This document shows, piece after piece, positions 15,912 through 63,669 of a stretch of 64,000 nucleotides of DNA. The notes beneath the pieces were generated by a model that was given only the letters and a program-made list of their open reading frames with translations, was not told the DNA's origin and did not search any database. The stretch is from IMG/VR virus record IMGVR_UViG_3300034096_000868, positions 128-64,127 of that record; one strand, given 5' to 3'. The stretch comes from a virus (taxonomy: Duplodnaviria > Caudoviricetes). A program made the position numbers and the translations under genes. Every line of letters starts with the position of its first letter. The stretch's first letter is position 1.

Positions 15912-16088
15912 ATGGAAAAAGAACTTAAAGAACTTTTAAAACTCAAAGAAAACGTAGTGAGGTGGAATATGTGTGCTGAACTCGATGAAAGGCTAGGATT
16001 AGACCCAACAAAATCAAATGAAAGTGCATTGTTTTACGAAAATGAATTAAATAGTAAATTGAAAAAGATTGTTGAAGCTTATGGGTAA
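15912..16088 (+). CDS. 58-aa hypothetical protein whose stop codon forms the first TAAC of array A
   Basis: MEKELKELLKLKENVVRW...KKIVEAYG* read by hand; TAA at 16086-16088. Confidence 0.55.
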   Translation: MEKELKELLKLKENVVRWNMCAELDERLGLDPTKSNESALFYENELNSKLKKIVEAYG

Positions 16089-16159
16089 CGGTTTCGGGCT
16101 TGGCGAAGTTTGCGAAGCGTTGGCTTGTGCGGTCGGGCAAATTGCGCCAAACCCGTGTT
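16087..16159. repeat. attC-like hairpin A1
   Basis: AAC GGTTT CGGGcTTGGCG..TTTGC / GCAAA..CGCCAAaCCCG T GTT; outer arm GTTATAAGAAGTAGC pairs with GCTATTTCTTATAAC at 16468-16482. Confidence 0.85.
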
Positions 16160-16198
16160 ATAAGAAGTAGCGGTTTATTAACGATAAATTTAATTAAA

Positions 16199-16468
16199 AT
16201 GGAAATAGAAAAACAAATTGATGATTTAACCTTTGAAAGATGGAGGTTTACATTTATGTATGGAACAATATTCTTAGATGGATATTGCTTACTGCAAAAA
16301 GAAAGCAAAAGGCACAAAAATTTTAAAGTGCTGAAACAATACGATAGAATAATAGGAAGGAGTAATACAATAGTGGAAAGTGAAGTGCCTTTTACTGATG
16401 AATTAAAAGCAGAAGCATTAAATCAATTTGTTTCTACGATAAAAGTTCTTAAATGGAGCGAAAGGTAG
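16199..16468 (+). CDS. cassette A1 hypothetical protein
   Basis: ATG 16199 after an A-rich leader; the track start at 16100 lies inside the hairpin. Confidence 0.65.
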   Translation: MEIEKQIDDLTFERWRFTFMYGTIFLDGYCLLQKESKRHKNFKVLKQYDRIIGRSNTIVESEVPFTDELKAEALNQFVSTIKVLKWSER

Positions 16469-16479
16469 CTATTTCTTAT

Positions 16480-16604
16480 AACGGTAAAATAATAAAAGCA
16501 GTAGCGATATGAAAGAACAAATTGAAAATATATTGATAAAGGTTGATGAAGGCACGATGCCTGTTCAACAAGCACTAAGCGAGCTATTGCTTTTATTTAG
16601 TGTT
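16480..16604. repeat. attC-like hairpin A2
   Basis: AATAAAAGCAGTAGC / GCTATTGCTTTTATT stem; arm GTTAGCGGTTCGTTGCC vs GGCAATGACCGCTAAC (16746-16761). Confidence 0.8.
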
Positions 16605-16760
16605 AGCGGTTCGTTGCCATCTATTGACCCATTAGATGACGAGAATAGCGAAATACATAAAATAGGTAGAGAAATAGCTGAAATGTCCGATGAAGAGTTT
16701 GATAATAATTGTAAAGCAATAACAGATATGCTGTCAAGGTCGAAAGGCAATGACCGCTAA
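16509..16760 (+). CDS. cassette A2 hypothetical protein (starts in the hairpin loop)
   Basis: reads through GTTAGCGGT (VSG); stop TAA is part of the terminal TAAC. Confidence 0.6.
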   Translation: MKEQIENILIKVDEGTMPVQQALSELLLLFSVSGSLPSIDPLDDENSEIHKIGREIAEMSDEEFDNNCKAITDMLSRSKGNDR

Positions 16761-16882
16761 CGGTCAAGTGTTGCCGAAGTGGGGGATTGTTAGTACAAAA
16801 GCCCATTAAAAGCACTACTGCCGAACACAGTACAAATGTTCATTAAATGCACGTTTGCCCCCCATTTTGGCAACACTATGTT
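16759..16882. repeat. attC-like hairpin A3
   Basis: AGTGTTGCCGAAGTGGGGG / CCCCCATTTTGGCAACACT; arm GTTGGTGGTTAGTGCC vs GGCATTACCACCAAC. Confidence 0.85.
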
Positions 16883-16922
16883 GGTGGTTAGTGCCTTTGT
16901 TAAACTGATTAAATAGAAAAAA

Positions 16923-17399
16923 ATGTCAAATAGAAATTTCAGAGGTCGGGTATTTCACTACTCAAATGATTGTGGCTGGGTTTATGGCGACTTTCATAAA
17001 ATGTATGATGGTAGTTTATACCATTATATAACTACATTACCTGACTTAGACAAAGACTGGCAAACTTCATATTATAATGTAGTTGCTGATACTATTACCC
17101 AAAGTACAGGATTAAAAGACAAAGATGGTAAAGAAATATTTGAAGGTGATATTGTTAAACATAAATTTCGTAGAATATGGCAAACTAAAGAACATATTTC
17201 AACAGTTGTTTGGTGTCAAGAATATTGCTGTTATTACTTGTTTGACGGTATTTGTAACCATAGAATGAGAGATGATATGGTTTATGAAATAATTGGTAAT
17301 TTCTTTGATAATAAGGATTTGGTAAAGGGCTATCCTCCTTGTCCAAAAGTAGAGCCATCAATAACAAATAAAAACTCATCCGATGACTTGCCATTTTAG
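16923..17399 (+). CDS. cassette A3: YopX-family protein
   Basis: FRG...WVYG...QSTGLKDKDGKEIFEGDIV...YEIIGN signature. Confidence 0.85.
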   Translation: MSNRNFRGRVFHYSNDCGWVYGDFHKMYDGSLYHYITTLPDLDKDWQTSYYNVVADTITQSTGLKDKDGKEIFEGDIVKHKFRRIWQTKEHISTVVWCQEYCCYYLFDGICNHRMRDDMVYEIIGNFFDNKDLVKGYPPCPKVEPSITNKNSSDDLPF

Positions 17400-17421
17400 G
17401 GTGTCTCGTGGCATTACCACC

Positions 17422-17547
17422 AACGTTAAACGGCTTTGTGACTGTGGTGGCAATAGAATTACTACTGTTCGTTACAGCACAAATGCCAAATAGGATTACC
17501 AAAGCTGAATATCAGCACATCAGCCACCATAGCACAAAACCGATGTT
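17422..17547. repeat. attC-like hairpin A4
   Basis: CGGCTTTGTGACTGTGGTGGC / GCCACCATAGCACAAAACCG; arm GTTGGTGGCAGGTTT vs AAACTTGCCACCAAC. Confidence 0.85.
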
Positions 17548-17586
17548 GGTGGCAGGTTTTTTTCTCGGTTTACAAATTTTAAAATT

Positions 17587-18072
17587 ATGCAAGTAATAGA
17601 AGAAATAGTAAAGATTTATCAAGCCAAAGACGGCACAAAATTCAAAGACAAAGGCGAATGTCAAACCTACGAAAAAGGTATTCCGTATGGTAATTATTAT
17701 GCTAAACTTTCAAACCTTAAAACTTTTGAAGTTACTGAAAACCATTTAAAACTAATAAAAAGAAATGTTATTGAATGGGTTTTTCATAGAGACGATTATA
17801 ATGCTGGTCATTTTTACCAAGATACAAAACGACCTTATGGAAATTCTGATTGGGTTGGTGATATTGCTGAAATTTTAGGAATTGAACCCGATTGCTCAAA
17901 TCCAAATGACGAAGACGAAAAATGGTTTTCTGAAAGTTTAGAGTACTTTTTAGTTTGTCATCATATTGATATGAGAATTGTAATGGAAATACTTTGTCAA
18001 AATTTGTCAATTCACAAAGGTAAATATGAAAGAGAAAGCGTTTATTCTTCGGACTGGGTGGCGGTCGCTTAA
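17587..18072 (+). CDS. cassette A4 hypothetical protein
   Basis: 161 aa; YQAKDGTKF..K.EC..YE N-terminus and KRPYGNSD motif. Confidence 0.7.
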   Translation: MQVIEEIVKIYQAKDGTKFKDKGECQTYEKGIPYGNYYAKLSNLKTFEVTENHLKLIKRNVIEWVFHRDDYNAGHFYQDTKRPYGNSDWVGDIAEILGIEPDCSNPNDEDEKWFSESLEYFLVCHHIDMRIVMEILCQNLSIHKGKYERESVYSSDWVAVA

Positions 18073-18082
18073 ACTTGCCACC

Positions 18083-18205
18083 AACGGTTCGCAGCTATAT
18101 TTAGTTGCGGATTTAGAATCACAAATTATCAAATTAGTAATAACTTAAATAGAAAGAAAAATGTCAAAGAAACCACAGAAACCGCAATTGAATATAGCTG
18201 TTGTT
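18083..18205. repeat. attC-like hairpin A5
   Basis: CAGCTATATTTAGTTGCGG / CCGCAATTGAATATAGCTG; arm GTTAGCGGTAGTTT vs AAATTACCGCTAAC. Confidence 0.85.
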
Positions 18206-18367
18206 AGCGGTAGTTTTTATTGGGTTCGTCCGTTCCATAAAGACGAGTTTGAACCTGCTAAATGTAAAGAACTATACGGAACAGATAAGCTATATTTTTT
18301 TTTCACAAATGGAAGTCGAATGGAAGTTGAACGTGCTTGGGAAGTAGAGCCGTTAAATTACCGCTAA
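18161..18367 (+). CDS. cassette A5 hypothetical protein
   Basis: 68 aa, identical to 59758..59964; starts in the hairpin loop and stops in TAAC. Confidence 0.7.
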   Translation: MSKKPQKPQLNIAVVSGSFYWVRPFHKDEFEPAKCKELYGTDKLYFFFTNGSRMEVERAWEVEPLNYR

Positions 18368-18412
18368 CGTTTTGCGTATAAAAAATCGTTTTAATGTTTT
18401 TTATACGCTGTT
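18366..18412. repeat. attC-like hairpin A6 (shortest, 47 bp)
   Basis: AAC GTTTT GCGTATAAAAAA / TTTTTTATACGC T GTT; arm GTTAGCAGTAGTAC vs GTATTACTGCTAAC (19491-19504). Confidence 0.85.
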
Positions 18413-18507
18413 AGCAGTAGTACGGATTTAAACCGCAAATGCTCATTCGGAGAACTGAACCTTTTTATTTTCTTTTTTGAGCGAGGACAAAATATTAAAA
18501 TAAAATT

Positions 18508-19491
18508 ATGACAATAGATTTAAGATACGGAGATACAATAGAACAAATGAAATTGATACCTGATAAAAGTATTGACTTTATTTGCTGTGATTTACCTTAT
18601 GGGACAACCGCTTGTATTTGGGATATAATTATACCATTTGATAAACTTTGGAGGGAATATAAAAGGATAATCAAAGATAAAGGAGTAATTGTATTGTTTG
18701 GTAGCGAACCATTTTCATCATTATTAAGAACATCTAATTTAGAGTGGTATAAATATGATTGGATTTGGGAAAAGAATAACGCAGGGAATTTTCAATTAGT
18801 AAATTATCAACCATTAAAAATACACGAAACCATATCAGTTTTTTATAATGAAACACCTAATATGGAATTTGCTAATATTATGGTTGAAAATATGAAAAGA
18901 CTAAACTTAAAGCAAATTGATATTTCAAAATTAGAACTTTCAAGAACAGGTGGAATGACAGGTTGGGTTACAAATAAAATGAACGGTTCTCAATTACCAA
19001 CAGAACAACAATGGAGTAAAATATGTGATTTGTTTGGTATTGAAAATAAATATGACGAAATACTTTTAACTGTAAAAAAGATTACATATAACCTTGAACT
19101 TGATGATACCAAATTAGTATTATCAAATAAAGGGAAAGCTGGAACATTAGGACATCTATCAAGTGAAAGTAAAAGAGAAACATACATACAAGATAAAACA
19201 GGTTATCCAAAAAGTATATTGAAATACAATAGAGAGAATGGATTACATCCAACTCAAAAACCTATACCATTGATGGAATTTTTAATAAAGACATATTCCA
19301 ATGAAGGTGAAACTGTATTAGATAATACGATGGGTAGTTGTTCAACAGGAATTGGATGTATAAATTTGAACCGAAACTTTATTGGGATAGATAATACAAA
19401 AAAGTATTTTAATATTTCTTTAAAGAGGGTGGAAGAAAAAAGAAAAGAAAAAGATTTTAACGTAGTAACTTCATTCGGAGATGGAATGTAG
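18508..19491 (+). CDS. cassette A6: beta-class N6-adenine/N4-cytosine DNA methyltransferase with an inserted HTH-like segment
   Basis: DLPYG (motif IV), HPTQKP, VLDNTMGSCSTG (motif I). Confidence 0.9.
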   Translation: MTIDLRYGDTIEQMKLIPDKSIDFICCDLPYGTTACIWDIIIPFDKLWREYKRIIKDKGVIVLFGSEPFSSLLRTSNLEWYKYDWIWEKNNAGNFQLVNYQPLKIHETISVFYNETPNMEFANIMVENMKRLNLKQIDISKLELSRTGGMTGWVTNKMNGSQLPTEQQWSKICDLFGIENKYDEILLTVKKITYNLELDDTKLVLSNKGKAGTLGHLSSESKRETYIQDKTGYPKSILKYNRENGLHPTQKPIPLMEFLIKTYSNEGETVLDNTMGSCSTGIGCINLNRNFIGIDNTKKYFNISLKRVEEKRKEKDFNVVTSFGDGM

Positions 19492-19532
19492 TATTACTGC
19501 TAACTTCTTTATTTACGCAACAAAAACACAAG

Positions 19533-55016: not shown

Positions 55017-55655
55017 ATGTCAGACAATAAACCACAAATATCACTTATTAAGAAAAGCGATTTAACTTTATGCGATTCTCAATTACTTTCTGAAAATCAA
55101 CTGCAATTCATATTAAGACCTACTCCAGAGAAATTCAAACGTAAAAGACCTGCTAAAGGTGGTGGAACGTGGGATTATGTTTCAGTAGGCTATATCCAAA
55201 AAGCACTTAACCTTATGTTTGGTTGGGATTGGGATTTTGAAGTTACAGAGCAAATTGTGAACATAGATGCTAAAGAGGTGATTTGCAAAGGTAGATTGAC
55301 TGTAAGAATAGTTAAGGACGGTCAAACTAGAACGATAACTAAAACTCAATTTGGCAATAAAGATATAATGTTTAGAAAAGATGGCAATATCCCATTATCT
55401 CTAGGAAATGATCTAAAATCTGCTGCATCCGATGCACTTAAAAAATGTGCATCCATGCTAGGGATTGCTCAAGATGTTTATAATGCTACTGAATTTAAAG
55501 AAGTAGTTATTGAAGAAACAATATTTAAAGACGTGGCACAAATGCTTACTAATTGCGAAAGTGCAGATGAAGTAGATGCTGTTTATTTCATGCTTAACGA
55601 GGAGGAGCAAGAGAAATATTTGCCACTTATAAATAGATTGAAAAATGGATTTTAA
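55017..55655 (+). CDS. Rad52/Rad22-family single-strand annealing protein
   Basis: YV....I...LN..FG..W.FEV ... K.AASDALKKCA..LGIA.DVY. Confidence 0.85.
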   Translation: MSDNKPQISLIKKSDLTLCDSQLLSENQLQFILRPTPEKFKRKRPAKGGGTWDYVSVGYIQKALNLMFGWDWDFEVTEQIVNIDAKEVICKGRLTVRIVKDGQTRTITKTQFGNKDIMFRKDGNIPLSLGNDLKSAASDALKKCASMLGIAQDVYNATEFKEVVIEETIFKDVAQMLTNCESADEVDAVYFMLNEEEQEKYLPLINRLKNGF

Positions 55656-56565
55656 CGATTACCTATTTAGAAGCCACATGGTTGGCAATATCATTTGTTC
55701 ATCAAATCCTTTAACCGAAAACCAAAAGGCTAAATTTGAGGAACTACATCAAAGATTTATAGGTAATGGAAAGCCATTAACTCCTAACCAAGACGCAGAG
55801 TACATATCTTTACGACACAAAGACAATGAATCTAAGATTATCAAATTCACAGATACTGCAAAGAACGCTCTAGCTGATATAGTTTTTTACGAAACTACTG
55901 GCCGAAAAAACTTACTAGATATTAAGAATTTCAAAAAAGGTATTATACGCGAAAAAGAATCAAGAGATTTGCTTTCTGCAGTTGCCGGAATACTTTTTAC
56001 AAAAGATGATGAAAGACGTTCTAATCAGTGGGTAACTGGGAAAAGAGATATTAAATTTGACATTATCCTAGATATTAAAAACTCATTTAGCCTAGAATCA
56101 TTTAGAAAACATTTACTAGAAAGCACCAATGCAATATACTTAAGTCAAATGGATTGCTATATGGAGCTATGGGATAGCAAAAATTCAATAATTTGCCATT
56201 GCTTGATAGATACTCCAATACAACTTGTAAACAACGAAATTAGAGCATTATCTTACAAAGTAGATTTATATAATCCTGGTGGAGATATTTATGATGATAG
56301 AATACCCGAAGTGAAGTCTGTAATACAAAATCATATCTTTACTCGTAAAGGACTAGAAGAATATTGTCAGCAGTCTACAAATATTTTTATAGAATGGTTT
56401 GATGATTTCAAAGAGATACCAAAAGAGCAAAGGGTTCACATGATTGAGCATCCATTTAGCCAAGATAGAATTGAACAAAGAAATGAGTGTATCATTAAAG
56501 CTAGGGAGTACATGAATACAATTAAACCTACTAATAAAATTATAAATTTAAAAGATTATTTATGA
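55645..56565 (+). CDS. PD-(D/E)xK (YqaJ/lambda-Exo-like) exonuclease
   Basis: FRSH..G, G...E, G..D....DIK.S, Y..Q...YM motifs; paired with the SSAP. Confidence 0.7.
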   Translation: MDFNDYLFRSHMVGNIICSSNPLTENQKAKFEELHQRFIGNGKPLTPNQDAEYISLRHKDNESKIIKFTDTAKNALADIVFYETTGRKNLLDIKNFKKGIIREKESRDLLSAVAGILFTKDDERRSNQWVTGKRDIKFDIILDIKNSFSLESFRKHLLESTNAIYLSQMDCYMELWDSKNSIICHCLIDTPIQLVNNEIRALSYKVDLYNPGGDIYDDRIPEVKSVIQNHIFTRKGLEEYCQQSTNIFIEWFDDFKEIPKEQRVHMIEHPFSQDRIEQRNECIIKAREYMNTIKPTNKIINLKDYL

Positions 56566-56864
56566 GAATAGAATCGCAAGGCACAAAAAACTTTAAGAAA
56601 TTCATGCTTAAAGCAAAAAAAATAAATTATAGCAAGAATTTGAAAAACTTAAAAAATGAATTTAAGCTAGATGACAGGCAGTATGATTTGCTATATAGAT
56701 ACTTAATTATGGTATTTTGCAAGCCTACAATTCAAGTTTATATTGGTGGATCAGAAATACCTCATATAAAGAAGAATATTGAGAAAGCAAATCAGATATA
56801 CTTGTACGCACAAGCATTTGTTAGTGAGAATAAAATATTGCTTAATCAAGAAATAATTGATTAA
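56562..56864 (+). CDS. hypothetical protein
   Basis: 100-aa ORF, last gene before array B. Confidence 0.5.
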   Translation: MRIESQGTKNFKKFMLKAKKINYSKNLKNLKNEFKLDDRQYDLLYRYLIMVFCKPTIQVYIGGSEIPHIKKNIEKANQIYLYAQAFVSENKILLNQEIID

Positions 56865-56880
56865 CGGAGCAATTTTGCTC

Positions 56881-56997
56881 AACGTCCGAGTGCTTGGCGA
56901 AGTTGCCGAACACAAAAGTTAAACTGAAAAACAAAAGTTGAAATTATGGATAAAGTTGAATTGAAAGACGAAACGGCAATTTTGCCAAACCCGTGTT
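56881..56997. repeat. attC-like hairpin B1
   Basis: TTGGCGAAGTTGCCG / CGGCAATTTTGCCAA; arm GTTATGTGCTGGGC vs GCCTTGCACATAAC. Confidence 0.8.
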
Positions 56998-57569
56998 ATG
57001 TGCTGGGCGGTTTAAAGAAGTATTCTGTTATTTACGCTGACCCTGCTTGGAGTTACGATTTTAAAGAGCCTACTGCATCCAAAGGTGGGGCGAAAGGAAG
57101 TGGTTATTCAGCAGGTGTTAATTACTACTATGGAACAATGACAACTAAACAGATACTTGAATTGCCTGTAAAAAACATTTGCGAAAAGGATTGTGTGCTT
57201 TTTCTATGGGCGACTAATCCGCTTTTACCCGAAGCCTTAGAAACGATGAAGGCTTGGGGGTTCAAATACAAAACGATGATTACTTGGCACAAAGAACGAT
57301 GCAAAGGAATGGGATATTGGTTTCGTGGGCATACCGAACATATTTTAGTAGGGGTAAAAGGGAATGTAAAAGCGTTTCGTTCTTTGGAACACAATATAAA
57401 AAAGTTGCCCGTAGAAAAGCATAGCAAAAAGCCTGATGAATTTAGGCAAATGATTGAAGCAGTTACAGGCAATTTAGGAAATAGAATAGAATTGTTTGCA
57501 AGGAATAACCACGAGGGATGGGATGCTTGGGGAAATGAAGTAGGTTCGTCTGTCGAAGTAGGATGGTAG
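56946..57569 (+). CDS. cassette B1: MT-A70-family N6-adenine methyltransferase
   Basis: YSVIYADPAW, LFLWAT, WGFKYKT..W.K, G.GYWFRG.TEH, HSKKP, IELFAR, GWDAWGNE. Confidence 0.9.
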   Translation: MDKVELKDETAILPNPCYVLGGLKKYSVIYADPAWSYDFKEPTASKGGAKGSGYSAGVNYYYGTMTTKQILELPVKNICEKDCVLFLWATNPLLPEALETMKAWGFKYKTMITWHKERCKGMGYWFRGHTEHILVGVKGNVKAFRSLEHNIKKLPVEKHSKKPDEFRQMIEAVTGNLGNRIELFARNNHEGWDAWGNEVGSSVEVGW

Positions 57570-57579
57570 CCTTGCACAT

Positions 57580-57702
57580 AACGGTCTAGGGCTTGACGCA
57601 GGTAGGAATAGAAAGCATAATTGCTTGTTTACTTACCAATGCTGAAAAGAGTGCTAAAGCCGAATAAAGCACCAAAGCCCTACTTGCGTTCAAACCCTTG
57701 TT
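57580..57702. repeat. attC-like hairpin B2
   Basis: AGGGCTTGACGCAGGTAGG / CCTACTTGCGTTCAAACCCT; arm GTTATATGCCGTTTT vs AAAATGGCATATAAC. Confidence 0.85.
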
Positions 57703-57751
57703 ATATGCCGTTTTTATCGGCTCAAATTTTTAACTTTTAAATAATAAATAT

Positions 57752-58087
57752 ATGTCTAAAATAACACAAGAAGATTATACAAAAGCACTTGAAACTATTA
57801 AAAAATTTCAATGTCAATGCTCAAAATGCGGAACACAATTTGGTGATAGGTGGGAATGGAATGCAAATTCATTCAAACTACAATTAAATATAGATTGCCA
57901 AAGTACAGACGCTTTATTTGGCGAAAAAGCAAATGAAATAGGGTTTAATCATCCTGCAATAGAAAAAGGTGCAGGGTATCAAAGATTAACGATTTCAAGC
58001 GGTAGAGAATTGCCTTATAGACTTTGTCCATCTTGTCATAGAAAGTTTTTTCGTCTTATAGGGGACTTTCTGCAAAATGGCATATAA
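57752..58087 (+). CDS. cassette B2: Zn-finger-like protein
   Basis: CSKCG ... LCPSCH; stop codon in TAAC. Confidence 0.7.
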   Translation: MSKITQEDYTKALETIKKFQCQCSKCGTQFGDRWEWNANSFKLQLNIDCQSTDALFGEKANEIGFNHPAIEKGAGYQRLTISSGRELPYRLCPSCHRKFFRLIGDFLQNGI

Positions 58088-58176
58088 CGTGATGCGGCTT
58101 TGTGTCTGTTTGCCCCTTGCTCAAAGTTTCAAGTTATCACAAATGTTGATGGGGCAAATAGCACAAAACCGCTGTT
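58086..58176. repeat. attC-like hairpin B3
   Basis: GCGGCTTTGTGTCTGTTTGCCCC / GGGGCAAATAGCACAAAACCGC; arm GTTATAGGCAGTAGGG. Confidence 0.85.
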
Positions 58177-58227
58177 ATAGGCAGTAGGGATTTTTAGCAG
58201 AATGTTTAATTTAAAAACAAATAAAAA

Positions 58228-58665
58228 ATGAACAACTTAAAAACAAAAGAAGATAGACAAGAAGCTATCAAACAAATTGAAAAAAGTTTTTTAACTACAA
58301 TCAAAAGTAATGGGCTTGAACTTTCAGAAGAAGCTGTTTGCAGAATAAACCAAAATAGTATTGAACTTGGTATTTGTGCAATAGGAAAGTATGCTGAAAA
58401 AGGTTATCAAATGGCTTTTGCATCGGCTATTGAATTGTATGCAAAAAGCTATGATGATGAACTTGGATTTGGAAGAAAAGAAAACGAAATAAACTTTGGT
58501 AGTTCTGGTTCTTTTAATCCATCTGAACGAGAAAGTTATTGGAGAACTATACACGCTGCATCTGTATTGAAAAATTGGGATATTGTTTCAGAAATTGTAA
58601 ATACCCATTGCAAAATGTATTGTGATTTGAGCAAGAAAATCTTTGAGGTAAATGTTCAATCGTAG
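58228..58665 (+). CDS. cassette B3 hypothetical protein
   Basis: 145-aa ORF filling the cassette. Confidence 0.7.
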   Translation: MNNLKTKEDRQEAIKQIEKSFLTTIKSNGLELSEEAVCRINQNSIELGICAIGKYAEKGYQMAFASAIELYAKSYDDELGFGRKENEINFGSSGSFNPSERESYWRTIHAASVLKNWDIVSEIVNTHCKMYCDLSKKIFEVNVQS

Positions 58666-58683
58666 CACGTCTGCCCTATTGCC

Positions 58684-58805
58684 TACGTTGAGCATATACG
58701 AAGGCAGGGCTTTGAAACTCAAATGCTCGTTTACTTCCGAAAGTTTAATCAACATATAAAAGCTGAAAGTTTGCACTTCTGCCCTGCTTTTGTATATGTA
58801 TTGTT
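58684..58805. repeat. attC-like hairpin B4 (junction AAC damaged)
   Basis: CATATACGAAGGCAGGGC / GCCCTGCTTTTGTATATG; arm GTTGGCAGTAGTGCT vs AGCATTACTGCCAAC. Confidence 0.8.
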
Positions 58806-58846
58806 GGCAGTAGTGCTTTTTGTCAAACTAGAATAAATTTAAGAAT

Positions 58847-59137
58847 ATGGAATTATGTAATTTTTCAAAGGCTTGGGTTGGTAATTGTAAAAATGAAAAA
58901 CCTTGCAAAGAACACGCTGAAATTAAATGCGGTTCTTGTGGTGAGCCTGCCACAAGAGAATGTGCTGAAACTGGTCAATTTGTTTGCGGTGTTCCTCTGT
59001 GTGATAATTGTGAGCATACTATCTACGAAGATGGTACAAATGGAGGTATTGGTTTTAATCAACAACGACCACACGAAGGAATGAAGTCACATTGTAAAAA
59101 GTCAGAACAAAAATTTAAAAGCTGGTATGAGCGGTAG
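58847..59137 (+). CDS. cassette B4: Cys-rich Zn-binding protein
   Basis: multiple CxxC / CxxH motifs in 96 aa. Confidence 0.7.
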   Translation: MELCNFSKAWVGNCKNEKPCKEHAEIKCGSCGEPATRECAETGQFVCGVPLCDNCEHTIYEDGTNGGIGFNQQRPHEGMKSHCKKSEQKFKSWYER

Positions 59138-59156
59138 TGTCGGTAGCATTACTGCC

Positions 59157-59237
59157 AACGTTTTGCAGATTGGCGAAGTTGCAAAATTGCGTTGGATTTG
59201 TGCGGTGGGATTTTGCAATTTTTGCCAATGTGCTGTT
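59157..59237. repeat. attC-like hairpin B5
   Basis: GCAgATTGGCGAAGTTGCAAAAT / ATTTTGCAATTTTTGCCAATgTGC; arm GTTATCAGCAGTTCT vs AGAATTGCTGATAAC. Confidence 0.85.
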
Positions 59238-59276
59238 ATCAGCAGTTCTTTTTTCACACTTAAATAATTATCAAAA

Positions 59277-59678
59277 ATGAATACATTAAAATTAACACTA
59301 AAAAAACAATGGTTTGACCTTATCAAAGAAGGTATCAAAACCGAAGAGTACAGAGAAATAAAGCCTTATTGGTTTGAAAGATTAGTTTTTCAATATGAAA
59401 AGGCTTTTAAATATTGCACTGGATATGATTACAAGCAACAACTTTATGTAAACGAAGGAATACAACATACTCTTTCTGAAAGTAAAAAATCAATGGTTGC
59501 AATGAAACCTTTTGACTTTGTAGAATTTACAAATGGATATAATTCTACAAGCCCAAAAATCACTTTAGAGTGTCAAAATATTATAATTGGGCAAGGATTA
59601 GAAGAATGGGGAGCAGTCAAGGGCGAAAGATATTTTATAATCAAACTCGGTCGTGAGGTTGGTCGGCAGAATTGCTGA
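59277..59678 (+). CDS. cassette B5: ASCH/PUA-like domain protein
   Basis: L.L.LKKQWFDLI..G.KTEEYRE.KPYW..RL ... F.NGY ... YF.I.LG. Confidence 0.8.
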   Translation: MNTLKLTLKKQWFDLIKEGIKTEEYREIKPYWFERLVFQYEKAFKYCTGYDYKQQLYVNEGIQHTLSESKKSMVAMKPFDFVEFTNGYNSTSPKITLECQNIIIGQGLEEWGAVKGERYFIIKLGREVGRQNC

Positions 59679-59679
59679 T

Positions 59680-59970
59680 AACGGTTCGCAGCTATATTTA
59701 GTTGCGGATTTAGAATCACAAATTATCAAATTAGTAATAACTTAAATAGAAAGAAAAATGTCAAAGAAACCACAGAAACCGCAATTGAATATAGCTGTTG
59801 TTAGCGGTAGTTTTTATTGGGTTCGTCCGTTCCATAAAGACGAGTTTGAACCTGCTAAATGTAAAGAACTATACGGAACAGATAAGCTATATTTTTTTTT
59901 CACAAATGGAAGTCGAATGGAAGTTGAACGTGCTTGGGAAGTAGAGCCGTTAAATTACCGCTAACGTTTT
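59680..59970 (+). repeat. exact dispersed repeat, copy 2 (cassette B6 = A5, including its hairpin 59680-59802)
   Basis: identical by eye to 18083..18373. Confidence 0.95.
59758..59964 (+). CDS. cassette B6 hypothetical protein
   Basis: identical 68-aa translation to 18161..18367. Confidence 0.7.
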   Translation: MSKKPQKPQLNIAVVSGSFYWVRPFHKDEFEPAKCKELYGTDKLYFFFTNGSRMEVERAWEVEPLNYR

Positions 59971-60084
59971 CGGGCTTTGCGTAGTAGGGGATTAAATGCA
60001 CTACGCTTGGTCTTAGCACAAATGTTTATTAGAAGCAGATAGTTTGGTTTAGCACTATCGCCCCTATTACGCAAAGCCCGTGTT
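59963..60084. repeat. attC-like hairpin B7
   Basis: CGGGCTTTGCGTAGTAGGGG / CCCCTATTACGCAAAGCCCG; arm GTTATATGAAGGTGGG vs CCCACTTTCATATAAC. Confidence 0.9.
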
Positions 60085-60180
60085 ATATGAAGGTGGGATT
60101 TTCACGCACTACACTTAAATAGAAGCACGTAAAAAGAAAAAGAAAAAATGAGCGTGGGAAACAATTTAATTTAAACAAAA

Positions 60181-60726
60181 ATGGGAACAAGAAATTTAAC
60201 AATGGTTATTAACCAAGAAGGAGAAAAGAAAGTAGCACAATACGGACAATGGGATGGTTATCCATCTGGAGTTGGGGTAGGTGTTCTTAAATTCCTTAAA
60301 GACAAAGAGGTGTTTGAAAAATTCAAAGTCAACTTATCTAAAGTGAGATTTTTAGATGAAGAAGGTGTTGATAAGGAATTTATTGAAAGCTACAATAAAA
60401 ATGCTCCACAATGGAGCAATGAACCAGACAACAGAACCGAAGAACAAAAACGTTGGTTTTCTACTTATTGCAATCGTGATTTAGCAGAAGAAGTTTTAAC
60501 CAATATCGCCAACTCTACTGACAAAGAAATTGTTTTAATGGATAGAGAAAACACCGCAAAAGGTGATGGATGGGTAGAATATTCGTATGTTATAAACTTG
60601 AAAGAAAATACGCTTGGCGTTTATGGACACATTGACCAAGAGCCAATGAAAGTTTACAAACTTGATGAACTACCTGAAGAAGATGTTTTCGTTTCTGAAT
60701 TGGAAGGAGTTGAAGAAGAAGATTAA
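60181..60726 (+). CDS. cassette B7 hypothetical protein
   Basis: MGTR......QY.QWDGYP.G.G ... EY.YVI.L motif pattern seen in phage hypothetical proteins. Confidence 0.75.
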   Translation: MGTRNLTMVINQEGEKKVAQYGQWDGYPSGVGVGVLKFLKDKEVFEKFKVNLSKVRFLDEEGVDKEFIESYNKNAPQWSNEPDNRTEEQKRWFSTYCNRDLAEEVLTNIANSTDKEIVLMDRENTAKGDGWVEYSYVINLKENTLGVYGHIDQEPMKVYKLDELPEEDVFVSELEGVEEED

Positions 60727-60800
60727 AAAGAGCGTGGGCGGATTTTTTCTTTTTCTTTCTCACGAAAGTTCAATCGAAGCACGTCTGCCCACTTTCATAT

Positions 60801-61033
60801 AACGGCATTGGGCTAAACGCAGTAGGGGTTTCCTACCTGTAAAGATGGAATGGCAGACAATTCAAGTTTAACTTTGTTCTTGATTGTTTGGACGACATCC
60901 CCCTATTGCGTTTTAACCCATGTTATAAGTCTGGTGGCGGGGCGTAGTGATTAAGGTAACAATAAGGGCAGAGTAAACTGCACAAACCCTAAATTAAATC
61001 CACTACCATTAATGCCCGCCACTTGCTTATAAC
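60801..61033 (+). other. cassette B8: ORF-less cassette with hairpin 60801-60924
   Basis: TGGGCTAAACGCAGTAGGGG / CCCCTATTGCGTTTTAACCCA; arm GTTATAAGTCTGGTGGCGGG vs CCCGCCACTTGCTTATAAC; no ATG-initiated + strand ORF over about 25 codons seen. Confidence 0.75.
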
Positions 61034-61116
61034 GGTTGGGTGTATGAGAAGGTTTGCTTGTAGAAACTTTCAAATTACAACTGAACTTAATAGCAAACTT
61101 TCTTATACACTTTGTT
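61031..61116. repeat. attC-like hairpin B9
   Basis: GTGTATGAGAAGGTTTGCT / AGCAAACTTTCTTATACAC; arm GTTATGTGTTGTTTT vs AAAATGACACATAAC. Confidence 0.85.
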
Positions 61117-61143
61117 ATGTGTTGTTTTTAAATTAAATAAAAT

Positions 61144-61371
61144 ATGGAAACAGGAAATTTAATTAAATCAACCAATTTCAACACAACACCATATTGGGTT
61201 GTAAAATGTGATAATTCAAATTTAATTGGTAATAGAAATGGTGAATTACCAATAGACCCTTTGAGTTTTAATTTTCATCCTTGGTCTATCTTAGAAAACA
61301 GAACGGTTAAATTTGAATTGGTTGAAATTGGTAGTGATGATAGATTGAAATGGTATGCTCGTCTAAAATGA
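61144..61371 (+). CDS. cassette B9 hypothetical protein
   Basis: 75-aa ORF whose stop lies in the terminal arm. Confidence 0.65.
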   Translation: METGNLIKSTNFNTTPYWVVKCDNSNLIGNRNGELPIDPLSFNFHPWSILENRTVKFELVEIGSDDRLKWYARLK

Positions 61372-61376
61372 CACAT

Positions 61377-61452
61377 AACGTTTTGCAGATAAGCGAAGGC
61401 ACAAATAGCGTTGGCTTTAGCGAGGAATTTGGGCTTTTGCTTATGTGCTGTT
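61377..61452. repeat. attC-like hairpin B10
   Basis: GCAgATAAGCGAAGGC.CAAAT / ATTTG.GCTTTTGCTTATgTGC; arm GTTAGCAGTAGGTTT vs AAACTTACTGCTAAC. Confidence 0.85.
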
Positions 61453-61497
61453 AGCAGTAGGTTTTTTAACTAATTATAAATTTAAAATAAATACAAA

Positions 61498-61731
61498 ATG
61501 GAAAATCAAGAAGTATTAAAATTCACTTGGAAAAAAGGAATTAAAGAAGTAAAACCTGCACACCCAATGGTTCAAAATTGGATGTTTACAGAAGAAACAG
61601 AAGAACAAGCAAGTTTAGCACATTATATGGCTGTTGTTGCTGAAAAGAATGGATTAACGGCAAATGATTTGCAACACTTATTCCCTGCTGTCCTTCGGAT
61701 GTTGAAAGATAGTTCAGCGTGGTCTAAGTAA
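61498..61731 (+). CDS. cassette B10 hypothetical protein
   Basis: 77-aa ORF filling the cassette. Confidence 0.65.
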   Translation: MENQEVLKFTWKKGIKEVKPAHPMVQNWMFTEETEEQASLAHYMAVVAEKNGLTANDLQHLFPAVLRMLKDSSAWSK

Positions 61732-61741
61732 ACTTACTGCT

Positions 61742-61795
61742 AACGTGTATATGTATTCAATACTCACAATTTATTAATAATCAAAAATATATATT
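61742..61795. other. candidate attI-like primary insertion site
   Basis: last AAC of array B, not followed by a hairpin, 51 bp before the integrase ATG. Confidence 0.55.
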
Positions 61796-62629
61796 ATGGA
61801 TTTTCTAAAGTATCAAAATAAATTTAGAATTGATTTAGATTTAAAATATTCTAATTCTTTGCAAACTAGAAATAATTATTTTTCTTGTGTTGTTAATTTT
61901 TTACAACATTTTAAAAATGAAAAAGAGCCTAAATCAATAAGTACTGATTCTATTAAATTATATTTGCTTTCTTTTAAAACTATAAATACTCGTAGAGCAA
62001 ACTTATGTGCAATAAAAGCATTTTACAAGCTAACTGTGAATATGCCTAATAAAATAGATAGAGTTCCTTTTCCTCAAAAAGAAAGAAGATTACCTATTAT
62101 TATAGATCAAATTGATGTACAGAAAATGTTTGATGTGTGTTCCAACTTGAAACACAAGTGTGTAATGGCAGTTCTCTATGGTACTGGAGTGAGAATATCC
62201 GAATTAATAGGCATTAAATTAAGTGATATTAGAAGAAATGAAAAGACTATTAGAATAATAGGCAAGGGGAATAAAGAAAGATTTGTGCCACTAAATGATA
62301 GCCTACTTCAATTAATAACAAATTATTGGAGAGAATATAAAACTAAAATATGGTTGTTTGAAAATGATTTATCACATACTCAATATAGCAAAAGAAGTGT
62401 TGGTTTGTTTTTAAAATCATTTAAAGAAAAAGCAAACATAAAAAGTCCAGTAAGTCCTCATAAATTCAGACACTCACACGCTACTGCATTATTAGAGCAA
62501 GGAACAGATTTAAGAATCATACAAAAGGAACTTGGACATAACTCAATAAAAACAACCCAATTATATACTCATGTATCTACAAATATTATAAGTAAAATAA
62601 ACTCACCATTAAACAATATAAACATATAA
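61796..62629 (+). CDS. tyrosine recombinase, integron-integrase-like
   Basis: catalytic R (YGTGVRISE), K (GKGNKER), HxxR (HKFRH), H (LGH), Y (TTQLYTHV); the YTHV....SPL ending resembles IntI. Confidence 0.92.
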   Translation: MDFLKYQNKFRIDLDLKYSNSLQTRNNYFSCVVNFLQHFKNEKEPKSISTDSIKLYLLSFKTINTRRANLCAIKAFYKLTVNMPNKIDRVPFPQKERRLPIIIDQIDVQKMFDVCSNLKHKCVMAVLYGTGVRISELIGIKLSDIRRNEKTIRIIGKGNKERFVPLNDSLLQLITNYWREYKTKIWLFENDLSHTQYSKRSVGLFLKSFKEKANIKSPVSPHKFRHSHATALLEQGTDLRIIQKELGHNSIKTTQLYTHVSTNIISKINSPLNNINI

Positions 62630-62631
62630 AA

Positions 62632-62928
62632 ATGAAACTAGCAAAACCAACAACTGCACTAACAGAGGTGCTTTATGAACTGCTCACAAAGAAAAGTATA
62701 AGCAATGCAGATTTGCCTTATATGTGGGGTTTCCGTTCAAGAATAAGCAATTTAACTACTAAGTATGGTATTCAGTTAAATTCTACTATGATAACTGCTA
62801 AAAATAAGCATGGTAGAGCTTATTCATACGTACAACATCAGTTAATGAAAAGAAAAGATGCTTTAAAAACCTATAATAAACTTATAGGAAATGAAAAAAA
62901 AGAAATTATCAAATATTTTAAAAAATAA
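62632..62928 (+). CDS. winged-HTH DNA-binding protein
   Basis: VLYELL...SIS.....FRSRISNL...GI.L pattern. Confidence 0.55.
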   Translation: MKLAKPTTALTEVLYELLTKKSISNADLPYMWGFRSRISNLTTKYGIQLNSTMITAKNKHGRAYSYVQHQLMKRKDALKTYNKLIGNEKKEIIKYFKK

Positions 62929-63000: not shown

Positions 63001-63669
63001 ATGCAATATCAAAGCAAAATAAACAATATCTTAGCTGATGTTATAAGAGGAACTAGAAACGAAATACAATACACAATTACAGATGCTAATTATGATATTC
63101 ACAATATATTTAATGGTAAAGTAACCCCAGAAATACTAGAAAAAACAAGCACTATTGATTATTTAATCAATGAATCTTGTTCAGTATTTGGCATACAAGA
63201 TAGAGAAGAAATATTTAGTCCATCTAGGAAAAGAGCTAGGGTATTAGCTAGACAAACTTGTATGTATTTGCTAGACAAATATAGAGCTGGAACTTTAGAG
63301 CAAATAGGTAGAATGTTTGGAGGTCGAGACCATTCAACAGTTATTCATAGCAAAAATGCAATTCAAAATATAATTGATGTTGAAGATGCTTTTTATGATA
63401 AGGTTGCATTAGTAGAAGAGAGACTTGTTGAATACATGAACTCGTCTAATAAGGCAATAAATGTAACAGAATTAACGCCACCAAAACCACCTTTTAACAT
63501 ACATTTGCTTGTTGAAAAAATAAATCAAATTAGACATAAGCAATTATTTTCAGTAGACCCTGAATTAATAAAATCTAGTAAAATTGAAAAAGGTACGTGT
63601 GATATAATTTTGTCTTTAATAAAAGAAATAAGTAATGAACAAGAGGCAACTATACTATCAAGCAAATAA
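63001..63669 (+). CDS. protein with a DnaA C-terminal (domain IV) HTH
   Basis: SRKR..V.ARQ..MYL......TL..IG..FGGRDHSTV.HS; no AAA+ domain. Confidence 0.85.
   Translation: MQYQSKINNILADVIRGTRNEIQYTITDANYDIHNIFNGKVTPEILEKTSTIDYLINESCSVFGIQDREEIFSPSRKRARVLARQTCMYLLDKYRAGTLEQIGRMFGGRDHSTVIHSKNAIQNIIDVEDAFYDKVALVEERLVEYMNSSNKAINVTELTPPKPPFNIHLLVEKINQIRHKQLFSVDPELIKSSKIEKGTCDIILSLIKEISNEQEATILSSK

Follow-up and report, generated by a model that had tools for sequence, protein, structure and literature searches.

Recombination of folded, single-stranded attC sites is regarded as a special invention of the integron integrases that is tied to an extra helix of these enzymes, and acquisition of the I2 helix has been described as the step that gave integrases single-strand recombination (PMC7790495). 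On the bottom strand, the R' box of most attC sites carries a G after its AAC; classical attC top strands recombine at lower rates and with the crossover shifted to the other box (Bouvier 2009, PMC2727003). Clusters of attC sites devoid of an integrase (CALINs) were described in virulent phages, together with attC-like sites around DNA methylase genes in Flavobacteriia phages, including Polaribacter phage P12002L (Qi et al. 2023, PMC9892861). One of the P12002L sites was recombined by IntI1 as its predicted bottom strand, in the naming of that paper, and its top strand yielded no recombinants. The same study reports no recombinase beside these sites, treats them as bacterial integron components residing on phages and notes that their predicted directions diverge (PMC9892861).

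Our search of the literature returned no description of an Xer-like recombinase accompanied by hairpin cassette arrays in phages. Two other systems that rely on Xer-type enzymes bear on the comparison. XerCD integrates the folded single-stranded genome of the CTX phage at dif, and this reaction provides a precedent for the single-strand chemistry proposed below: it involves Xer-type enzymes without the IntI insertion, a folded single-stranded hairpin with an unpaired centre, exchange of one pair of strands and resolution by replication. It differs in that one site, a whole phage genome and host enzymes take part rather than a phage enzyme with cassette arrays. The Acinetobacter modules make use of short duplex dif-like sites for host XerC and XerD, unlike the 47-126-nt hairpins with AAC and GTT ends of the phage. 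On Acinetobacter plasmids, recognition sites of Xer-type recombinases flank individual genes, which are thought to be mobile as modules (PMC7399989).

The stretch of DNA analysed here (the window; 64,000 nucleotides) makes up nearly the whole of a 64,127-base virus record with a G+C content of about 31%. In contrast to integrons, the host element is a phage. A P22-like portal gene is present and very large structural genes occupy the + strand. The DNA relatives of the window are Flavobacteriia phages, and lake-water metagenome runs (22 coded studies) hold near-identical DNA; a nucleotide search with the terminase and portal region gave no match among cultured phages. Sixteen hairpins running from an AAC to a GTT, all on the + strand, were found in two clusters (16087-18412 and 56881-61452), 15 of them being distinct (sites A5 and B6 below are identical). 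The build of an attC site, i.e. an imperfect inverted repeat with AAC and GTT ends, an unpaired central spacer and a variable loop, is present in all 16, one of which has TAC in place of AAC, and recurs in 154 non-redundant sites from related loci; the phage sites have their size peak near 122-126 nt.

The arms of each window site were aligned against each other with G.T and A.C scored alike. The first-pass annotation of this DNA had drawn attention to a conserved asymmetric internal loop of about five by one nucleotides, and the asymmetry is found in every site: the 5' spacer is the longer one in 16 of 16, the spacer pairs (5' x 3') measuring 5x1 in eight sites, 5x2 in one, 6x2 in three, 6x3 in one, 6x4 in one and 8x4 in two. 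Each of the spacers that it listed (GGTTT, GTTTT, GGTCT, GTGAT and GGCAT) was recovered among the window sites, the stems that it put at 12-23 bp measured 12-24 bp, and its figure of 47 to 126 for the length from AAC to GTT, with about half of the sites at 122-126, agrees with the 47-126 nt that we measured (nine of 16 sites at 122-126 nt). Most stem mismatches are G.T on the + strand, as it had also claimed (23 G.T vs 6 A.C, the remaining stem cells of the 16 sites comprising 276 Watson-Crick pairs, four transversion mismatches and seven single-base gaps), but the mismatches turned out to be position-specific rather than scattered. G.T pairs fall at stem positions 8-14 with the G on the 5' arm; in the window they sit higher up the stem than the A.C mismatches, often as GAAG opposite TTTT, and all six A.C mismatches lie at stem positions 2-5, where a C of the 5' arm faces an A of the 3' arm. 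No conserved extrahelical bulge was found in the 16 sites, where the single-base gaps fall on either arm. Unlike integron sites with their conserved extrahelical bases, the phage sites have a lopsided 5x1 spacer, a mismatch at position 4-5 and G.T wobbles. The extrahelical bases of classical attC sites lie on the arm opposite to the one that holds the extra spacer bases here (PMC2727003).

The hairpins belong to two cassette arrays on the + strand. Array A (16087-19504) consists of A1 (16087-16159; 73 nt, 5x1, C.A at stem position 5), A2 (16480-16604; 125 nt, 8x4 as aligned), whose loop holds the ATG of an 83-aa ORF (16509-16760), A3 (16759-16882; 124 nt, 5x2, two G.T), A4 (17422-17547; 126 nt, 6x2), A5 (18083-18205; 123 nt), which forms the left end of a duplicated cassette (18083-18373), and A6 (18366-18412; 47 nt, 5x1), located 5' of an N6_N4 DNA methylase gene (18508-19491). 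It is closed by a terminal half-site, TGCTAAC (19498-19504), that is complementary to the right flank of A6 and is followed by neither a hairpin nor a recombinase gene. We note that array A, with six cassettes, lies 37 kb away from the recombinase gene and has the same terminal TGCTAAC as array B.

Array B (56881-61744) starts with B1 (56881-56997; 117 nt), in the loop of which lies the first ATG (56946) of an MT-A70 methylase ORF (56946-57569), and continues with B2 (57580-57702; 123 nt, 5x1, spacer GGTCT, C.A at position 5), B3 (58086-58176; 91 nt, 5x1, spacer GTGAT), to which hairpins in 37 Flavobacterium phage records are 83-87% identical, and B4 (58684-58805; 122 nt), the site in which TAC replaces AAC. 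The left flank of B4 (tgcc; 58676-58805 with the site) is complementary to its own right flank, and the flank expected from the preceding site, ctat, stands just 5' of it, which looks like a fused or degraded boundary. Next come B5 (59157-59237; 81 nt, 5x1) and B6 (59680-59802; 123 nt), which together with a 68-aa ORF (59758-59964) makes the second copy of the duplicated cassette (59680-59970). The site on which the first-pass annotation had centred, B7 (59963-60084; 122 nt), reads cgctAAC, spacer GTTTT, a 20-bp stem with one G.T as its sole mismatch, a loop of about 70 nt, a single T opposite the spacer (5x1) and GTTatat. It is followed by B8 (60801-60924; 124 nt, 5x1, spacer GGCAT, C.A at position 5), B9 (61031-61116; 86 nt) and B10 (61377-61452; 76 nt, 5x1), the final full hairpin 5' of the recombinase gene. 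A putative attI-like end (61738-61795) completes the array: its terminal TGCTAAC (61738-61744) complements the right flank of B10, and the AAC lies 54 nt before the recombinase ATG. Besides the two methylases, the cassettes carry a YopX-family protein (16923-17399). A Pfam scan of the 11 further cassette ORFs gave sub-threshold matches for two and none for the remaining nine. A Rad52/22-family protein is encoded just 5' of array B (55017-55655), and a protein with a DnaA C-terminal helix-turn-helix domain just 3' of the recombinase gene (63001-63669).

The enzyme encoded at the end of array B (61796-62629, + strand) is an Xer-like protein of 277 aa and the only tyrosine recombinase of the record. 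Xer families were its best-scoring models, all of them below their curated cutoffs (XerA_Arch, 194.5 vs 220 bits; XerD, 182.7 vs 329.6; XerC, 177.6 vs 335), and the integron integrase model TIGR02249 matched in two stretches with 156.9 bits, below the cutoff of 265. Against VchIntIA (2a3v), residues 25-225 and 208-274 of the query aligned to residues 23-218 and 253-319 of the chain, which leaves about 45 VchIntIA residues without a counterpart. An AF2 model (pLDDT 85) found its best alignment with XerA (5hxy) and took up 319-320 columns against 2a3v for the 277-residue query, with about 43 gap columns. As judged from this model the fold is Xer-like, and both alignments indicate that the IntI-specific insertion of about 43-45 residues (the I2 helix region), by which integron integrases differ from the phage enzyme, is missing. 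The C-terminal tail resembles that of integron integrases. A protein search of cultured phages gave 62 matches, all below 60% identity, with none above 36% among the 40 listed. It is the genomic context that argues for a role of this recombinase at the hairpin arrays.

Homologues of the recombinase numbered 1,936 at E below 1e-20, most of them 276-277 aa long, and 280 viral contigs were found to encode a relative; 80 of these contigs and the window (81 loci) were examined, 58 of which had at least one hairpin site upstream of the recombinase gene. A first site scan, which favoured G.T, detected within 6 kb of the gene 182 co-oriented sites upstream (290 kb) and 17 downstream (425 kb), and 16 and 19 sites, respectively, in the opposite orientation. 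Rescanning the 8 kb upstream in a strand-neutral way yielded 219 sites, 178 of them non-redundant; in these 178 the 5' spacer is longer in 154, equal in seven and shorter in 17. The analysis that follows was restricted to the 154 sites (51 loci); the 24 that were dropped show 30 G.T vs 23 A.C, compared with 242 vs 75 in the 154 and 272 vs 98 in all 178. G.T pairs peak at stem positions 11, 13 and 14 and have the G on the 5' arm in 205 of 242 cases, A.C mismatches peak at positions 4-5, and the base after AAC is G in 139 sites. Stem position 4-5 is mismatched in 59 of the 154 sites, for the most part with C facing A or G facing G; the 3' arm contributes a purine in 58 of 60 cases, and the mismatch may be a stand-in for the extrahelical G of attC. 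Control hairpins retrieved by the strand-neutral scan from 566 kb elsewhere in the same contigs were balanced in asymmetry (150 vs 162) and had 443 G.T vs 377 A.C, and the real sites differ from them in both respects (Fisher p = 7e-22 for asymmetry and p = 2e-12 for G.T/A.C). In the 47 strict 5x1 sites, several types of Watson-Crick pair occur at each stem position and the Watson-Crick fraction is 0.844, vs 0.426 with partners shuffled; pairing seems to be kept through sequence change, a statistic that is partly circular in that the site scans select for pairing.

Across the 154 sites, the AAC/GTT box extends outward, with ATTGCnnnT before AAC and AnnnG followed by a less conserved GCAGT-like stretch after GTT, and the extended box includes a conserved T opposite the G at position 8. 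A conserved run of T on the 3' arm was considered as a Bacteroidota -33 promoter element and dropped, the motif after GTT being better explained as the second half of this extended box. The same layout is found on contigs of Chitinophagales, Flavobacterium and Saccharimonadales genome bins. On one of them, a 428-kb contig from a Chitinophagales bin (L084), a recombinase 70% identical to that of the window has four sites of the 5x1 type upstream and is located inside a long bacterial contig, which hints at a host group or an integrated copy. Our scan of P12002L found chained lopsided sites flanking a methylase gene, with the longer spacer on the gene-sense strand, and Flavobacterium phage lillamy9-1 has one lopsided site between two methylase genes.

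The limits of the cassettes can be read from repeats and rearrangements. Along the chain of the window, the four nucleotides 3' of each GTT are complementary to the four nucleotides 5' of the next AAC, and cassette-specific complementary flanks are another property shared with integrons. A stretch of 291 bp is present twice in identical form (18083-18373 = 59680-59970): it opens with the A of a left AAC, spans a whole hairpin and the 68-aa ORF, and ends in the AAC and spacer of the next site; the sequences to its left and the next hairpins to its right are unrelated. These limits define the mobile unit as a hairpin together with its downstream gene, with the crossover at the left AAC. Four cassettes are reordered between two of the related loci (L020 and L022) and a third (L071) has triple tandem copies of one cassette; the bounds of all these cassettes fall at -4 to +5 of the left AAC. 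Among non-redundant boundaries of homology blocks, contig ends excluded, 29 coincide with the left AAC in both partners and six with the right GTT, 170 lie away from any site and the remainder are mixed. Five of the six right-end boundaries are ends of 93-134-nt blocks that stop at the right end of a hairpin and are about one hairpin long. Of 54 blocks that span a gene, six begin and end at a left AAC and none does so at right ends; the start of two such blocks was classed as right-end, one of these starts lying also 13-14 nt left of the next AAC.

Contigs from lake metagenomes diverge from the window at 57585, 59969, 61376, 61378 and 61747, i.e. at -1 to +6 of a left AAC; right-end divergence occurs at 59799 (two runs), where the contigs carry the 68-aa ORF behind another hairpin, and at 61453 (one contig, leaving the last hairpin). 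Among 24 loose ends listed (there are 127 more), six map to a left AAC, three to a right GTT, five within hairpins and ten elsewhere. Two of the related loci (L007 and L030) share a gene together with its 4-nt flank, but the hairpin in front of this gene differs between them. Joints in assembled lake contigs were considered as evidence of excision and dropped, their short sides being 20-42 letters long and the content between them unknown. As far as such sequence comparisons go, cassettes appear to travel as units whose limits lie at the conserved triplet on one side of the site; right-end boundaries are a minority. Downstream of the last site, 53 of 58 loci contain the complement of that site's flank followed by AAC. 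Over the same 58 loci, the distance from this terminal AAC to the recombinase start is 53-55 nt in 27 (the window included), about 70 nt in seven, 109-114 nt in five and greater in 14, with the terminal AAC absent in five. In one lake run, a contig matches the window up to 61747 and then shows what appears to be a further hairpin arm after the terminal AAC (window region 61741-61747), which would mean an extra cassette at the terminal site 5' of the recombinase gene.

Folding energy alone proved to be a weak guide to the folding strand. As DNA, B7 folds at -25.1 kcal/mol on the + strand and -24.9 on the - strand (z = -5.3 and -5.1 against shuffles, none of 200 of which was as good), and is a tie with respect to strand. 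Over the 16 window sites, the energies sum with DNA parameters to -266.6 kcal/mol for the + strands and -241.2 for the - strands, the + strand being better in 11, the - strand in three and neither in two, and with RNA parameters to -525.7 vs -454.4 (two sites one base too long). In the 154 related sites the + strand is the more stable DNA in 128, by a mean difference of 1.7 kcal/mol. Equal folding of the two strands, which had been named beforehand as an outcome that would speak against strand choice, is what the focal site displays; the window as a whole and the related loci favour the + strand. The first-pass annotation had taken the internal loop and the G.T bias to identify the folding strand: the pattern itself is there, yet this tie and the small difference across the family make it a weaker identifier than claimed.

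The proposal that the + strand is the folded substrate, in the manner of the bottom strand of attC, finds its main support in the cassette boundaries and the layout of the locus. When a tyrosine recombinase monomer occupies an AAC/GTT box, it cuts the strand leading from this box into the spacer, so that a crossover at the left AAC would designate the + strand as the strand that is cut. As in integrons, the array seems to end at a crossover site just 5' of the recombinase gene, whose sense strand would be the folding strand; the order cassettes, terminal site and recombinase gene on the + strand is that of the bottom strand of a classical integron and supports the + strand, as does the G after AAC, which is also that of the attC R' box. 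The orientation of the cargo is the inverse of the classical one: the cassette genes lie on the presumed folding strand, 3' of their hairpin, and run toward the recombinase gene on its strand, which is not the arrangement expected of an integron. The tie at the focal site, the right-end boundaries, the position of the extra spacer bases opposite the classical extrahelical arm and the lack of the IntI insertion all count against the + strand. On balance we think it probable, from the anatomy of the sites and by analogy with integrons, that the + strand, the coding strand for recombinase and cassette genes alike, folds and is cut within the 5' AAC as an attC-like substrate.

From what was observed, namely the conserved build of the sites, the limits of the cassettes and their association with the recombinase, one may envision the following course of events, in which single-stranded folding, the position of cleavage in the AAC and the features read by the enzyme are modelled on integrons. 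The + strand would fold into a hairpin in which the AAC/GTT pair and its flanks form the box for the active recombinase monomer, the lopsided spacer (about 5 nt from AAC, starting with G, and about 1 nt before GTT) makes up the central region, and the second binding box lies in the initial portion of the stem. The enzyme would then cut the + strand inside the 5' AAC and exchange it with another site or with the terminal site before the recombinase gene, and replication would resolve the product of this strand exchange. Three features may direct the choice of strand: the asymmetry of the spacer; the single mismatched pair often present at stem position 4-5, whose 3'-arm purine could replace the extrahelical G of attC; and G.T pairs at positions 8-14, which would stay paired in the + hairpin and become A.C in the - hairpin. 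Given the few boundaries at the 3' GTT, this choice looks biased rather than absolute.

Other readings of the asymmetry and of the G.T bias were weighed against this proposal. The hairpins may fold as mRNA, in which G.U is allowed, and serve in processing, stability or control of translation, recombination being indifferent to the DNA strand. All cassette genes and the recombinase gene have the + strand as their sense strand, so that the G.T bias does not distinguish between a function as DNA and one as mRNA, and with RNA parameters the + strand is the more stable by a mean of 3.2 kcal/mol (114 of 154 sites). In 52 of the 96 long sites (at least 110 nt), moreover, the loop contains an ATG whose frame continues for 90 nt or more beyond the GTT, compared with four of 58 short sites and four of 154 controls; such a hairpin would enclose the translation start. 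What makes a purely RNA-level function unlikely in our opinion is that it leaves unexplained the mobile units bounded by AAC, the flanks that are complementary from cassette to cassette and the 53-55 nt array end. RNA, too, leaves the conserved C.A or G.G at position 4-5 unpaired, terminator-like sites are as frequent as expected (four found vs 3.4), and nothing in Rfam matched 15500-64000 at E up to 1. Counts from a consensus promoter and terminator scan of 56000-62700 equalled those of shuffles. Loop start codons of the window are those at 56946, 59758, 18161 and 16509, the 3' arm being then coding, and such codons may explain why the hairpins come in two size classes. DNA and RNA roles could coexist, and RNA-level effects in addition to recombination are plausible.

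The enzyme may also use both strands, or a cruciform or duplex, with no real preference, in which case the spacer would reflect mere enzyme geometry and the predominance of left-end boundaries a sampling effect. Xer-type enzymes usually act on duplex sites, the energies of the two strands are nearly equal at many sites and right-end boundaries do occur; yet non-redundant boundaries are mostly at the left end (29 vs 6), gene-spanning blocks are delimited on both sides by a left AAC in some cases and by a right end in none, the duplex has no inverted-repeat arms 6-8 bp apart at the AAC, and the polarity of the asymmetry is fixed relative to the recombinase gene, all of which renders indifference to the strand quite improbable. 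Least credible of all is that the G.T excess is a functionless by-product of base composition or of strand-biased mutation on a G-rich + strand. GC skew is positive over both arrays and control hairpins are themselves slightly rich in G.T, but the excess amounts to 3.2 to 1 at real sites vs 1.2 to 1 in controls, is limited to stem positions 8-14 with the G largely on the 5' arm, and gives way at positions 4-5 to the opposite type, with C on the 5' arm and A on the 3' arm.

With folding of the + strand as the preferred reading, knowledge of the folding strand tells which oligonucleotide or transfer orientation to try first. We tentatively propose that small Xer-like recombinases devoid of the IntI insertion, which form a large family, may run complete single-strand cassette exchange in Bacteroidota phages and some candidate-phyla genomes, reading a lopsided spacer and a stem mismatch rather than extrahelical bases. 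The coding (non-template) strand would be the one recombined, such that transcription or replication could expose the substrate, and the loop of the 122-126-nt sites would also supply a start codon, making the recombination site a translation start. An attC-like site logic with fixed strand polarity is found here next to a simpler enzyme. If this enzyme acts on the folded + strand, the extra helix would not be needed for such chemistry, the attC-like sites reported in virulent phages would gain a cognate enzyme, and a widespread system of gene exchange among phages would be one that integron-finding tools overlook.
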